The notes: generated from the sequence alone by a model not told the origin. Positions 10,566-59,287 are shown, counted from the first letter of the stretch. The stretch: 59,764 nt of DNA from Thermoproteota archaeon (GCA_032249315.1 JAVVGB010000002.1:1-59764); one strand, 5' to 3'. A program made the numbers and translations.

Positions 10566-10804
10566 AAGAATTATCTCATTTATAAGTTATAAAATGAGCG
10601 CCAGAAAAACCCATAGCTTTAATTCTGAATGAATAAGCAAAGCTTAAATAGTTGTAAAAATTATTCCAAAGGTTAAAGAAAAGATATAATTATGAGAGAT
10701 GATAGTTTATAGGCTAAACTAGTATATAAATAGGAACGCTTCCTTGAAAGAGCTCAATATAGCCCATAGATTAATGAGAGCTATGGGATGAGAAGTTTTG
10801 AGCT

Positions 10805-10860
10805 TCTCAAATAAGCAAATGAGGAGATAGGGGAAAACCCTACTCTAAATGCTGGTAGCT
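10805..10860. repeat. copy A of a ~57-nt hairpin-bearing element flanking atpI
   Basis: Hand alignment to 12986-13042. The 44-nt gapless core (10817-10860) has 37/44 identities and includes the exact 15-mer AAACCCTACTCTAAA. The hairpin is at 10824-10845. The atpI stop codon lies inside the element. Confidence 0.75.
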
Positions 10861-12911
10861 TCGCCCTTTAGGGCGGAGTAGCTCAGTCGAGTATAATTTC
10901 CTTCTTTTAGAAACCTTCTAAATTCTTTTCCGTCGCCATAATAAAACTTAGTAAACCATTCATATAAATGCAATCTTAATGCTTGTATGAACACTATGAA
11001 ACCTTCCATTAAAATTATACCTATATTACCAAATATAAGAGCAATTGTAACAACTATGGTAGTAATAATTGGATTACCAAGATAAATATTGGTCACAAGG
11101 TTTAGATTTAATAATAATGCGGTATGAACTATTACCAATATAGCTAATCGTACATAGCTGATCGTATTTGAAAGTAATCTCGTTATTGAATCAAATACTT
11201 CTATGGCTCCTTCACCCAAATAACTTTTAAGCTTTACTTCAGCTCCATGCTCAAATCTGTGAGCTAGATATTTAAATGAAAATATTAAAGCTAATCCAAA
11301 AAGAGATAACACGGAGAAAACTTTAGAGTATATGTGAGCAGGAATGCCTAAAATTAAGCTTGAACCGTATGCAAAATTGTTAAAATTAAAACCTACTACT
11401 ATTAGACCATACATTAAAAAAACGCTGGAAAGATAGAAAGTTAAATAAGCTATTCCACCTAATATATCCTCATAATTTTTAGCAATTATACCGTTTACAA
11501 ATCTAATAAACATACCTAATGTGATATGAATTACTCCGATTATTAAACTAAGTTGAATTACGAATAAGATCGTAGCAGGATTCATTTCCTTTGTTTTATG
11601 ATTCATCAATTCCAATATTGGTTCATATTTAATAAAAGGAATCCCAAAACCGAAAAATTCACCATAAATAAGTCCAAAAATCATACTAGAAACGCCCAAA
11701 CACATAATTAAAATTCCCCATCGCTTTAAATTACCTAAAGTTTTAACATATAAAAGAATACCAAGTAAGAACAATATGAGCCCTCCTCCAAAATCAGCAA
11801 ACATATAACCATAGAAGATTGAAAAAAAGAAGAAAATAAAAGGTGTTGGATCAATTTCATTATATCTTGCTTTCCCGTGCATATTGGTTATTAATTCAAA
11901 CGCATTAATTATAGGTTTATTTAATATTAAAGAAGGAGCGTTGTTAATTTCGTTTTTATTTAATTCATAATACTCTACATAAGCTAAATCCTTCAAATGA
12001 AGAGAAAATTGAGTTTTCATTCTCGCTGGAATGTATCCTTCAATAATTATAAAATGCTTTGTAACTTTAGAGAACTTTAAATTTAAAGCGTTTAAATACT
12101 GCAGATAAATTAACTCATATACTTCCAATAGCTCATTATACTTTTCCTTAATCGTTTTATCAATAAAGGCTGAGATTTCATCAATCTTTTTCTTTAATTC
12201 ATTTATTTCTATATTTAATTTATTCAAATATTCCTCAATATTTAATCCATAAAATTCTTTTACATTAATGACTTTTATGTCCAAACTTCCCAATATTCTA
12301 TTTAATTTTTCTTGAAACAGAGGTTTTGCAATTAGTAATGTTACATATTTATCTTCGGTTACCTTTTCACTTACAATGAATACTTCAGAAGGAAGACTCT
12401 TCTGTAATTCAATTAATGATTTCTCAGTAGTTACAACTAGAGTAATAAGAAAATTTTTAATTGTAAGAAACTTAGATATAGGTATTTTAATTTTTTGGAA
12501 ATATGTTAAATACTCTCTTAAAGACTCTTTTTCGCCTACTTCTTTAATTTTTTTCCTTTTTTCTTCAATATAAGGCATAAAAGTATTTTTAAGAAAATTA
12601 ATTTTTTGTTTTGAAAAATTTAAAAAATCTTCAATTGAAACGAAATCATAAACATTCTTTTTATACTTTTCTTTTGATAATAAATAATCTAAAACCCCAA
12701 ATTCTTTTTTAACATTTAATTCGCTTAGTAAACTATCCATTTCTGAAGAAAATTTACTTAAATTTTGTATCAAATATGAGCCATATTCTGTTTTTTCTTC
12801 TCTTAATTCATTTACATGAAAGTATTCAAAATCGATCAACTTACTAATAAGCTTATCTAAATTTGATTTTGAAGTTATAATGTAGGCTTTGTTTAATTTT
12901 TCTACCCCCAT
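10845..12911 (-). CDS. atpI: A-type ATP synthase subunit I (membrane a-subunit homologue)
   Basis: 688 aa. Soluble N-terminal half plus a polytopic C-terminal half with the conserved SYVRLAILV...H and ALRLHLYEWFTKFY motifs. It is the only ATPase gene on the minus strand. Confidence 0.9.
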   Translation of the reverse strand: MGVEKLNKAYIITSKSNLDKLISKLIDFEYFHVNELREEKTEYGSYLIQNLSKFSSEMDSLLSELNVKKEFGVLDYLLSKEKYKKNVYDFVSIEDFLNFSKQKINFLKNTFMPYIEEKRKKIKEVGEKESLREYLTYFQKIKIPISKFLTIKNFLITLVVTTEKSLIELQKSLPSEVFIVSEKVTEDKYVTLLIAKPLFQEKLNRILGSLDIKVINVKEFYGLNIEEYLNKLNIEINELKKKIDEISAFIDKTIKEKYNELLEVYELIYLQYLNALNLKFSKVTKHFIIIEGYIPARMKTQFSLHLKDLAYVEYYELNKNEINNAPSLILNKPIINAFELITNMHGKARYNEIDPTPFIFFFFSIFYGYMFADFGGGLILFLLGILLYVKTLGNLKRWGILIMCLGVSSMIFGLIYGEFFGFGIPFIKYEPILELMNHKTKEMNPATILFVIQLSLIIGVIHITLGMFIRFVNGIIAKNYEDILGGIAYLTFYLSSVFLMYGLIVVGFNFNNFAYGSSLILGIPAHIYSKVFSVLSLFGLALIFSFKYLAHRFEHGAEVKLKSYLGEGAIEVFDSITRLLSNTISYVRLAILVIVHTALLLNLNLVTNIYLGNPIITTIVVTIALIFGNIGIILMEGFIVFIQALRLHLYEWFTKFYYGDGKEFRRFLKEGNYTRLSYSALKGEATSI

Positions 12912-17980: not shown

Positions 17981-18280
17981 ATGGACAAAACTACTTTCCT
18001 AACTATAATAACAATACTATTCTTTATAACAATACCTTTTGTAAGTGCACAAGGAGGCGAATTAGAAGAAGGTTTAAGATTGGTAGGAGCTGCTTTAGCC
18101 ATTGGATTAGCAGCAATTGGAGCTGGAATAGCCATTGCATACTCAGGTGCAGCTTCTATAGCAGCTGTAGCTGAAAAACCTGCAATGAGAGCTTGGAGCT
18201 TTATAATTTTAGGTCTTTCAGAAGCTTTGGCAATTTATGGTTTAATAATAGCATTCTTGTTATTGCTAAGAGTATTTTAA
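17981..18280 (+). CDS. atpK: A-type ATP synthase proteolipid subunit c
   Basis: 99 aa. Glycine/alanine-rich helical hairpin with the ion-binding Glu in GLSEALAIYGL. An extra N-terminal hydrophobic segment is present. Confidence 0.85.
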   Translation: MDKTTFLTIITILFFITIPFVSAQGGELEEGLRLVGAALAIGLAAIGAGIAIAYSGAASIAAVAEKPAMRAWSFIILGLSEALAIYGLIIAFLLLLRVF

Positions 18281-39907: not shown

Positions 39908-40549
39908 ATGAATAAATTTTTGATAGAACTAGAAGATTTTTACCAAAGAGAAAGTAAAAATTTAGATGATAAACAGAAAAAATTGTTTAAAGATCTTGTT
40001 GAAAGGGTAATAGATTTGTATCTTAGGCAACTTTTAAAGTCAAATCATACTATGATGGAAATAGTACTAGCATTAAATTTAATAAAAGAGAATAAAGAAG
40101 TTGAAATTGAAAAAGAAGTAAATAATCTAGTTGTTGATCTATTTGTCCATTATAAAAATAAGAAAGAAGTAATTGAAGTAGAAACAGGATTTGTCCCACC
40201 TGAATATTCTACAGATCCCGTAACATACAGATATGCAAGAGAAATAAGTAAAATAGCAAGATATTCAAAGTATGCCGATATTTTTTCTTTAGCAATTCCT
40301 CCTTTTCATTTATTACAAATTCCTGAAGTTTTCGCATTTCAATCCAATGAACGAAGTGAGGAAAATTTGAAAGATATAAAAGAGATTTTGGATAAATATT
40401 ATAAAGCTCCGCCAATAACATTAGAGGAACTAAAAAACGCTAAAATTAATTATATTTATATAATTTACGTTGATAAAGTTTCAGTTAAAAAATTGGAATT
40501 TAAAGAATATTTGAATTTTATTAAAGAATTAAGAGAGAAACTTTTTTAG
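39908..40549 (+). CDS. hypothetical protein, possible PD-(D/E)xK-like nuclease fold
   Basis: 213 aa. The only hint is VVDLFVHYKNKKEVIEVETG (a D ... ExE/ExK-like spacing). No confident family assignment. Confidence 0.45.
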   Translation: MNKFLIELEDFYQRESKNLDDKQKKLFKDLVERVIDLYLRQLLKSNHTMMEIVLALNLIKENKEVEIEKEVNNLVVDLFVHYKNKKEVIEVETGFVPPEYSTDPVTYRYAREISKIARYSKYADIFSLAIPPFHLLQIPEVFAFQSNERSEENLKDIKEILDKYYKAPPITLEELKNAKINYIYIIYVDKVSVKKLEFKEYLNFIKELREKLF

Positions 40550-40553
40550 TAGA

Positions 40554-40707
40554 GTGCATTTAAGCCCATAACCAAATTTGTCTTACACTTACGCATTAAA
40601 TATGGATAACACCTTCCATAGGCGGGGGCGACCTATGGAAACCCCCGGTGTTATCCATATTTAATGCGTAAATGCAAGGCAAACTTAGTTATAGGTTTGC
40701 CCTGCAC
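40554..40707. repeat. 154-nt rod-like imperfect palindrome with GC-rich core
   Basis: Hand fold. Perfect 25-bp stem (40589-40613 / 40647-40671). Inner 9-bp hairpin (40614-40622 / 40632-40640). Outer imperfect extension down to 40554/40707. Confidence 0.85.
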
Positions 40708-40920
40708 CCGTAATTTTAACTTCTTTTTGTTTAATATAAATTTATCTTTTTTAAAAAATTAGGGAAAAAACCTTTATTTGAAAGGTTAACTTTATGGTTA
40801 ATTAAATCTTGGTTTATTCACCTCCATAAAATTTCTAGGATTACCCGAACTTAAAGAAAAACTAAGATTTTACTTATAACTTAATTAGAAGCTAAAAAAT
40901 TTTTGTAAAATATAAAAAAT

Positions 40921-55620: not shown

Positions 55621-55749
55621 ATAGCCAGCCGGCATGGCTACCTTCGCACGGCCTTTCGGACCGTACTAAAAGTAGCCACGGTGAGCGGTTTAACTTCCGG
55701 GTTCGGAATGAGACCGGGTATTTCCCGCTCCCTATGGCCGGCTGGCTAT
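55621..55749 (-). rRNA. rrf: 5S ribosomal RNA
   Basis: The reverse complement reads ...CCGGCCAUAGGGAGCGGGAAAUACCCGGUCUCAUUCCGAACCCGGAAGUUAAACCGCUCAC..., matching the universal 5S loop B/helix III core. The terminal helix ATAGCCAGCCGGC/GCCGGCTGGCTAT closes the molecule. Ends are good to within a few nt. Confidence 0.9.
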
Positions 55750-55893: not shown

Positions 55894-55988
55894 GGGGCCG
55901 TAGTTCAGCTTGGTTAGAATGCTTAAAGCATGACCAAAATGTGCGGCTTGGGACCGCATGGTCCCAGGTTCAAATCCTGGCGGCCCCA
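55894..55988 (+). tRNA. tRNA-Pro (UGG) with a ~20-nt intron at a non-canonical position (around nt 26/27)
   Basis: Hand fold. Acceptor GGGGCCG/CGGCCCC. D arm 55903-55920. Anticodon arm TGCGG-CTTGGGA-CCGCA (55942-55958). T arm CCAGG-TTCAAAT-CCTGG. An extra 20 nt (55922-55941, with register ambiguous because AATG is duplicated) separates position 26 from the anticodon stem. Confidence 0.78.
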
Positions 55989-59183: not shown

Positions 59184-59287
59184 GCCGGGGTCATCTAGCC
59201 TGGCTAGGATGCCGGACTCATAATGCTATGCCAAGGGTCAGGCATGCGTGAAATCCGGTGTCGTGGGTTCAAATCCCACCCCCGGCA
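59184..59287 (+). tRNA. tRNA with CAU anticodon (elongator Met or Ile2) carrying a ~30-nt intron at the canonical 37/38 site
   Basis: Hand fold. Acceptor GCCGGGG/CCCCGGC. Anticodon stem CCGGA/TCCGG. Loop CTCATA-[intron 59223-59252]-A. T arm GTGGG-TTCAAAT-CCCAC. A G1:C72 pair argues against an initiator. Confidence 0.88.

Follow-up and report, generated by a model that had tools for sequence, protein, structure and literature searches.

Archaeal splicing endonucleases are known to cut tRNAs, rRNAs, one mRNA and one 5' untranslated region (UTR). In the canonical geometry of the 37/38 tRNA intron, each strand of the motif called bulge-helix-bulge (BHB) reads 5'-helix, 4-bp strand, bulge, helix-3' and is cut after the second bulge nucleotide. 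Sequence conservation is not normally required of such motifs. Crenarchaeal rRNA introns that lack an open reading frame (ORF) are rod-like hairpins with a BHB at the base. The target of the enzyme consists of two 3-nt bulges separated by 4 bp, and the crenarchaeal (alpha-beta)2 enzymes tolerate relaxed motifs (PMC4033280). The excised pieces are circularized (PMC7714728, PMC3326292); this route of excision and circularization has been established for the introns of tRNAs, for precursors of rRNA and for a single 5' UTR (PMC7714728), and circular noncoding RNAs (ncRNAs) are common in Sulfolobus (PMC3326292). Here we analyze a 154-nt palindrome at positions 40554-40707 of a 59,764-nt stretch of DNA from a Thermoproteota archaeon (JAVVGB010000002.1; the whole stretch is called the window below). 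The palindrome forms a long hairpin that is conserved and covaries in relatives, and we assign a probability of roughly 0.6 to its being the single-copy gene of a rod-shaped, thermostable ncRNA that forms a new family and is found in a small clade of hot-spring archaea.

The closest mechanistic relatives of the hairpin are the BHB-bounded archaeal introns and processing stems. As in tRNA and rRNA introns, the 16S/23S processing stems and the HVO_1309 5'-UTR intron, bulges on opposite strands lie 4 bp apart at the base with the same polarity and with flanking helices. Unlike those substrates, the hairpin is free-standing with its own putative promoter, has no meaningful exons and lies outside tRNA, rRNA and mRNA. 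It also differs in that the sequence of its bulge and helix is conserved (GGGCUUAAA), in that its layout is 3-4-4 unless an extra 1-nt bulge is allowed, and in that its cleavage and circularization are predictions only. If the BHB-like base is functional, the substrate range of the endonuclease would extend to a free-standing RNA gene and the product would be a natural, purpose-built circular RNA in a thermophile.

Three other systems are comparable in part. The Hgc RNAs were reportedly found by Klein, Misulovin and Eddy in 2002 as GC-rich ncRNAs of the AT-rich Methanocaldococcus and Pyrococcus genomes. The hairpin is likewise an intergenic, structured GC island in the AT-rich genome of a thermophile, but it is a single 65-bp rod and resembles no Hgc family in sequence or structure. 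If circularized, its product would resemble a viroid in being a closed, nearly fully paired rod (~137 nt) with periodic wobbles or mismatches. Unlike a viroid, the hairpin is chromosomal, single-copy, vertically inherited and much smaller, no ribozyme or replication signal was detected in it (no Rfam match), and circularity is a prediction. In bacteria the Y RNA is an ncRNA encoded beside its protein partner, next to rsr. The hairpin has a similarly long stem between its 5' and 3' ends and a gene beside one conserved protein gene, a pairing that survives rearrangement. There is, however, no homology to Y RNA, and the neighboring protein has a PD-(D/E)xK fold and is widespread without an adjacent RNA, the partnership being only putative. 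To our knowledge few structured ncRNAs have been described in Thermoproteota beyond tRNA, rRNA, signal recognition particle (SRP) RNA, RNase P and guide RNAs, and we know of none in YNPFFA-type hot-spring lineages.

The palindrome is real, and the sequence features listed in the preliminary description of this DNA, which was made from the sequence alone, were all confirmed. The hairpin begins after a 4-nt gap following the TAG stop codon (40547-49) of ORF 39908-40549, and it lies in a 371-nt gap (40550-40920), which is the window's largest ORF-free gap if the minimum ORF length is set at 60 aa. The outer stem GTGCA/TGCAC is present and on the minus strand can be extended by two pairs (40552-53 with 40708-09). 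Positions 40589-40613 are the exact reverse complement of 40647-40671, giving the perfect 25-bp stem of core sequence TTACGCATTAAATATGGATAACACC. The apical 9-bp hairpin, its CGGGGGCGA loop, the ACCCCC bulge and a T5 tract at 40724-28 were all found. Our plus strand fold contains five 1x1 A·C mismatches and 3 G·U pairs, close to the five mismatches and four G·U pairs counted earlier. Its minimum free energy (MFE) was -78.1 kcal/mol versus -34.5 +/- 3.7 kcal/mol for 200 shuffled sequences (z = -11.7), none of which (0/200) folded as well. The minus strand, which the preliminary description had missed, folds better still (-89.1 kcal/mol) with 5 G·U pairs and one mismatch. The GC content was said to be well above that of the surroundings, and it is: 42.9% versus 27.8% in the flanks, a level reached by 0.5% of 154-nt windows, among them those of the 5S and tRNA genes. 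The window as a whole is AT-rich (28.7% GC) and has intron-containing tRNAs.

A hairpin follows the homologue of the adjacent 213-aa gene in seven species-level genomes (49-85% protein identity). The 213-aa protein has relatives in Thermoproteota of hot springs and vents, candidate division YNPFFA among them, and the clade that carries the hairpin consists of hot-spring and vent Thermoproteota of the YNPFFA type. Each of the first five relatives to be found has a hairpin of 143-160 nt following its homologous gene, and so does a sixth (L144, equal to L222). The sequences fall into group 1 (the window, L005 and L006), group 2 (L007 and L008) and group 3 (L009 and L144). Between these subgroups the stem sequences have diverged almost fully and are still paired, with the ends of the hairpin conserved (plus strand GCATTTAAGCCC ... 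AGGTTTGCCCTGC). The preliminary description had suggested asking whether the arms covary in relatives; they do, as in a stable structured RNA, and they are GC-enriched. In the four closest sequences (group 1), which align unambiguously, all 68 of 68 pairs are canonical in each sequence, and in 19 of them both partners have changed in a compensatory way. Shuffling the columns 500 times never reached this level, and sliding the partner by 1-3 columns gave 27-45% pairing. Within the rod, 17 of 48 pairs are compensatory in group 1 and none is broken on the minus strand. The rod could not be aligned across subgroups by MAFFT, and subgroup alignments and alignments guided by a covariance model were used instead. 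When groups 1 and 2 are aligned with this guidance, 98.9% of 475 cells are canonical and compensatory changes occur in 44 of 67 pairs, figures that are generous because the alignment was fitted to the structure. The support from covariation is as strong as that for many curated Rfam families. In every genome the hairpin exceeds its flanks by 15-32 points of GC, and such an excess is a mark of thermostable structural RNAs in AT-rich thermophiles. That the element is structured, conserved and selected for its pairing we consider very likely. The region 3' of the homologous gene was searched for the hairpin in 80 loci from across Thermoproteota (Thermofilaceae, Bathyarchaeia and Nitrososphaeria), and outside the clade none was found there. 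Covariance model R1 likewise gave no match in the 80 loci, although R1 is too group-specific to detect even group 3 and its result does not speak to a hairpin elsewhere in those genomes.

The element is single-copy. Within the 59.8 kb, the partner at 40647-40671 is the sole further match to the 25-nt core at up to three mismatches, and the exact core had no match in 185,579 representative genomes. A loose two-anchor pattern gave, among the genome matches listed, only chance matches without a rod fold. The metagenome pattern scan returned near-identical copies or variants of the known orthologues plus chance matches only, viral contigs gave only weakly folding chance matches, and a group 3 pattern recovered only its two known members. 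Neither the window nor ~50 related loci contain dispersed copies, and the scans of genomes, metagenomes and viral contigs showed none. At gathering thresholds Rfam 15 found only the 5S rRNA and three tRNAs in the window and no family at the hairpin, and at the hairpin permissive scans (E up to 10), run on the window and also on L009 and L008, yielded nothing but generic hairpin noise far below threshold. Inspection by eye found no K-turn, H/ACA, C/D, SRP or RNase P motif. By these measures the element is a new RNA family without an Rfam match.

The preliminary description had folded the plus strand. The wobble asymmetry, the position of the promoter and the geometry of the base module instead favor the minus strand in the window. 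The minus strand MFE is the better one in 8 of 10 sequences, by 5-16 kcal/mol. Among one-sided substitutions in the five orthologues of groups 1 and 2, G·U outnumbers A·C by 49:2 when read on the minus strand, and in group 1 there are 11 wobble changes versus 0-1 in the opposite direction. RNAalifold of the four closest sequences gave -103.2 kcal/mol with no broken pairs for the minus strand versus -91.4 kcal/mol with seven pairs broken by A·C for the plus strand. When a covariance model is trained on group 1, it picks up group 2 on the minus strand only. In 6 of 7 orthologues a TTTAWATA match of 7/8 or better ends between -23 and -30 on the minus strand, versus 0 of 7 on the plus strand, a motif match only, with a background of 0.03-0.11 per site. 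The minus strand TATA is preceded by a purine-rich tract (AGAAAG and similar) that resembles a B recognition element (BRE). Downstream on the same strand, L009 has a T6 tract directly after the hairpin and the other orthologues have T/C-rich tracts at +11 to +25. The apical C(UUCG)G tetraloop of group 3 exists on the minus strand only, and the base module, promoter and UUCG loop still favor that strand in L009 and L144/L222. The hairpin RNA of the window is thus probably read from the minus strand, and from these sequence features we think it likely that it is an independently transcribed ncRNA.

The base of the hairpin is its best-conserved part. On the minus strand the 5' arm of all orthologues consists of the outer helix, a 4-nt strand (GGGC, AAGA, GAGC or CAGU), a bulge (AAA or ACG) and CC, and the 3' arm of GG, a 4-nt strand (GCUU or GCUG), AAA and the outer helix. 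All orthologues have a covarying outer helix of 5-10 bp (GUGCA, GUACA, GACGCA, GGGCGCA and CCGGGCGCGG); the inner CC/GG is invariant. Across the seven orthologues 27 of 28 central helix pairs form on the minus strand versus 19 of 28 on the plus strand. The central helix variants are compensatory (GGGC/GCUU, AAGA/GCUU, GAGC/GCUU and CAGU/GCUG), the one A x G mismatch is in L007, and the 4-bp helix carries two conserved G·U pairs. The 3'-arm bulge is exactly 3 nt in all seven, and the 5'-arm bulge is 3 nt only with an extruded U or C and is otherwise 4 nt. The polarity of a BHB and flanking helices of at least 2 bp are present on the minus strand; the plus strand has the mirror order of helix and bulge, and the module pairs correctly on the minus strand only. 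BHB conformers lie 2-3 kcal/mol above the MFE. By analogy with known substrates, BHB-dependent excision and circularization of the hairpin RNA is a tentative proposal that we hold to be possible.

Two other intron settings were considered for the hairpin and rejected. An mRNA intron does not fit, as the ORF stops before the hairpin and no minus strand ORF abuts it, and a split tRNA or tRNA intron does not fit flanks without tRNA-like sequence. The host does have tRNA introns, in at least two tRNAs and in one at a non-canonical position. In the tRNA at 55894-55988 (plus strand) an insert of 27 nt occupies a non-canonical site around the D-arm, and a tRNA-Met (CAU) at 59184-59287 (plus strand) has a ~30-nt intron; both were matched by Rfam and missed by ARAGORN. 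The intron junction of the tRNA-Met gave no clean canonical BHB fold for comparison.

At the apex, the interleaved GGGGG/CCCCC complementarity that had been described is present together with the 9-bp stem in group 1, but its reading as a pseudoknot was not supported. The GGGGG/CCCCC pairing shows no covariation: it is the same throughout group 1, and group 3 lacks it. Group 2 has two other interleaved 7-bp pairings (CCCUGCG/CGCAGGG and GGGAGGC/GCCUCCC), and group 3 has a simple hairpin capped by the C(UUCG)G loop. The second stem is invariant within each group. In a pseudoknot, 1-nt linkers would have to span helices of 5-9 bp, which is sterically doubtful, an objection that rests on general pseudoknot geometry. 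The other possibility raised earlier, two mutually exclusive conformers, is more plausible: the nested alternative apical hairpins are nearly isoenergetic (-12.3 versus -12.6 kcal/mol in L007).

The strongest competitor to a minus strand ncRNA gene is a plus strand RNA, either as a structured 3' end (stabilizer or terminator) of the 213-aa mRNA or as a bidirectional terminator or insulator, with perhaps both strands in use. Of the 7 genomes, 5 have the hairpin 4 nt past the stop codon, the plus strand has T4 and T5 tracts 7-21 nt downstream, and attachment to the 213-aa gene survives the change of all other neighbors. In L222, however, the hairpin is ~65 nt from the stop codon; the window and four orthologues have 4-5 A·C mismatches on the plus strand where the minus strand has G·U; and the base module pairs worse on the plus strand even in L009 and L144. 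A plus strand RNA needs no positioned promoter and leaves the conserved opposite-strand TATA/BRE unexplained. Archaeal termination requires only oligo-T and no structure, and the view of the preliminary description that the element is far more elaborate than a terminator stands: a 150-nt covarying rod with a specific base and apex exceeds what termination needs. We regard the plus strand explanation as unlikely, and were the element only an mRNA 3' structure it would still be an unusually large conserved archaeal 3' element. Several observations nevertheless weigh against the preferred interpretation of a minus strand ncRNA gene with a BHB-like base. Only ~7 independent sequences are available, and most orthologues are without a clear minus strand oligo-T terminator. 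Group 3, made up of the two GC-rich orthologues (L009 3612-3760; L222 975-1121), has a wobble bias opposite to that of the five AT-rich ones, with 5-6 G·U on the plus strand and 3-4 A·C on the minus strand, and in L009 and L144/L222 the plus strand MFE is the better one by 13-16 kcal/mol. Some of these A·C mismatches are at equivalent sites in both sequences and therefore may be selected weak points, or else the plus strand may matter there. At the base, a strict 3-4-3 BHB needs a 1-nt bulge (U; C in group 3) 2-3 bp into the inner helix, conservation of GGGCUUAAA could instead reflect a specific protein-binding loop, and the 'exons' of a BHB model would be trivial, for which no precedent is known. 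Finally, the protein family occurs across Thermoproteota without an adjacent hairpin outside the clade.

The preliminary description had offered a stable RNA and a DNA cruciform side by side. The GC content and covariation bear out the RNA-like half of that statement. A DNA palindrome that acts as a cruciform or protein-binding site, its arms kept matched by intramolecular gene conversion, we consider improbable. Template switching could homogenize a perfect 25-bp inverted repeat, the lineage-opposed wobble bias could be strand-biased deamination, and the nuclease-fold neighbor could bind DNA. Against this, asymmetries that conversion would erase persist over deep divergence (the AAA bulge, the 4-bp helix with two G·U pairs, the 6-nt one-sided apical bulge and the group 3 UUCG loop), one-sided substitutions are one-directional (11 wobble versus 0-1 in group 1), a promoter-like motif stands at a fixed distance, and the element is strongly enriched in GC, as thermostable RNAs typically are. 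An element of a replication origin or terminus, with dyads like those of the origin recognition box (ORB) and a local switch of GC skew, is very improbable. The hairpin does occupy the longest noncoding gap, cumulative GC skew peaks here, and the apical stem (TTCCATAGG/CCTATGGAA) may loosely resemble ORB dyads. The skew change coincides, however, with the switch of gene orientation, because the genes here are convergent; the flanking genes examined include no Orc1/Cdc6; there is no repeated ORB set; and what is conserved is the pairing of the stem and not its sequence, the opposite of a protein-binding origin box. Equally remote is a mobile element of the type of a miniature inverted-repeat transposable element (MITE) or repetitive extragenic palindrome (REP), or a recent neutral palindromic insertion. 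Its shape in an intergenic gap resembles long terminal inverted repeats, and MITEs and REP elements are also long imperfect intergenic palindromes. Unlike them, the hairpin is syntenic and covarying without target-site duplication. The copy-number check proposed at the outset was negative, and the flanks (TAGA...CCGT) carry no direct repeat. Flanking sequences vary among orthologues while the element keeps its place, at the identical syntenic site in seven diverged genomes and with compensatory evolution. The MITE reading is refuted because the element is single-copy in the window and the scans gave only the orthologous locus or non-folding chance matches.

For the minus strand ncRNA gene we propose the following scheme, for which the positions are given in Table 1. 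Transcription would proceed from the gene's own BRE/TATA (40733-40747) and start a few nt from the hairpin base, and the 5' and 3' ends of the transcript would pair as the outer helix. The tRNA-splicing endonuclease would cut each bulge after its second nucleotide, the two cuts releasing a 137-nt rod (40560-40696) that an RtcB-type ligase may close into a circle protected from exonucleases at high temperature. The predicted circle (back-splice) junction is ...GGGCUUAA^ACCUAUAAC..., also written ...AUGGGCUUAA^ACCUAUAACUAAG..., and the exon junction would be ...GUGCAGGGCAA^AUGCACUC.... The fast-evolving, always-paired rod would serve as a stalk, and function would reside in the conserved base and in the GC-rich apex, which may alternate between two hairpins. 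Such an RNA would probably work with, or regulate, the adjacent nuclease-fold protein. The full scheme, a dedicated gene for an 'intron without exons' that yields a BHB-cut, ligated 137-nt circular rod acting in a ribonucleoprotein with the TACK-wide PD-(D/E)xK protein or in its control, is speculative and we think it somewhat less probable than excision and circularization by themselves. If true, archaea would have a new class of circular ncRNA, and the splicing endonuclease a substrate of a new type.

Table 1 Coordinates of the hairpin, its predicted parts and its surroundings in the window
Feature	Position	Strand	Remarks
Whole hairpin RNA gene (candidate)	40552..40709	-	154-nt core 40554-40707 plus 2 closing pairs; ~65-bp rod
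Outer helix, 5' strand (GGGUGCA)	40703..40709	-	Pairs with 40552-40558
Central 4-bp helix of BHB-like module, 5' strand (GGGC)	40699..40702	-	Pairs with GCUU 40562-40565
5'-arm bulge AAA (group 3: ACG)	40696..40698	-	Predicted 5' cleavage after 2nd nucleotide, from the canonical BHB rule
3'-arm bulge AAA	40559..40561	-	Invariant in 7/7 orthologues; predicted 3' cleavage after 2nd nucleotide
Central 4-bp helix, 3' strand (GCUU)	40562..40565	-	Within best-conserved motif GGGCUUAAA
Long rod, 3' arm	40566..40613	-	Pairs with 40647-40695; fast-evolving sequence, pairing kept
Long rod, 5' arm	40647..40695	-	Covariation in relatives
GC-rich apical domain (GGGGGU-UUCCAUAGG-UCGCCCCCG-CCUAUGGAA)	40614..40646	-	Two interleaved complementarities; conserved in group 1
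Putative archaeal promoter	40733..40747	-	TATA box TTTATATT 40733-40740; BRE-like AGATAAA 40741-40747; TATA end 26 nt upstream of hairpin
Predicted 137-nt product after two bulge cuts	40560..40696	-	Computed consequence of the model
213-aa neighbor gene, convergent	39908..40549	+	PD-(D/E)xK nuclease-like fold; unannotated protein
Conserved spacer block, TTATGG/CCATAA inverted repeats	40790..40840	.	Window, L005 and L006 only

The hairpin sits between convergent genes, and the 213-aa gene and the RNA are tail-to-tail in all groups. The outer neighbors differ among the three groups while the gene-RNA pair persists: tRNA-Cys/Trm1 and a 148-aa ORF plus peroxiredoxin in group 1, an aldehyde dehydrogenase in group 2, and unrelated genes with Gfo/Idh/MocA oxidoreductases in group 3. 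The 213-aa gene is thus the only gene that adjoins the hairpin in all three subgroups. Its protein had no match in Pfam, NCBIfam, PADLOC, PHROG or PDB sequences. The AlphaFold2 model is confident, with a predicted local distance difference test (pLDDT) score of 94.7, and gave weak fold matches to PD-(D/E)xK nucleases (SfsA, XisH, Bax1 and restriction enzymes). The invariant residues of the family (H47, E68, D77, E90, E92, T93, G94, F95, R111, K115, R118 and Y119) fit a PD-(D/E)xK active site. Members of the family occur in 579 or more genomes of Thermoproteota, Bathyarchaeia and Nitrososphaeria among them; a functional RNA-protein partnership is not required, because the family is widespread without an adjacent hairpin. 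The coupling of gene and RNA may be functional or merely ancestral, since the hairpin follows the gene in this clade only. The linkage is a first handle on the function of a nuclease-fold protein present in hundreds of Thermoproteota, including the ammonia-oxidizing Nitrososphaeria.

In the remainder of the spacer, the conserved block at 40790-40840 lies ~60-110 nt upstream of the RNA (minus strand) and is a possible regulator site. Outside this block the spacer shows no significant folding (z = +0.7).

Elsewhere in the window, a second GC-rich intergenic island at 10787-10900 (plus strand, gap 10566-10844) has a sub-threshold match to HgcC (RF00062; 23.4 bits versus a gathering threshold of 50, E = 0.0024) and may be an ncRNA gene. 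The GC island at 18 kb was considered as an RNA and rejected: it is a small ATPase proteolipid gene, an ATP-synthase c/K-like proteolipid gene at 17982-18280 (plus strand), in a gap of 650 nt that separates long ORFs. At 55624-55745 (minus strand) a 5S rRNA gene stands alone beside a tRNA; the window contains neither a 16S nor a 23S gene.

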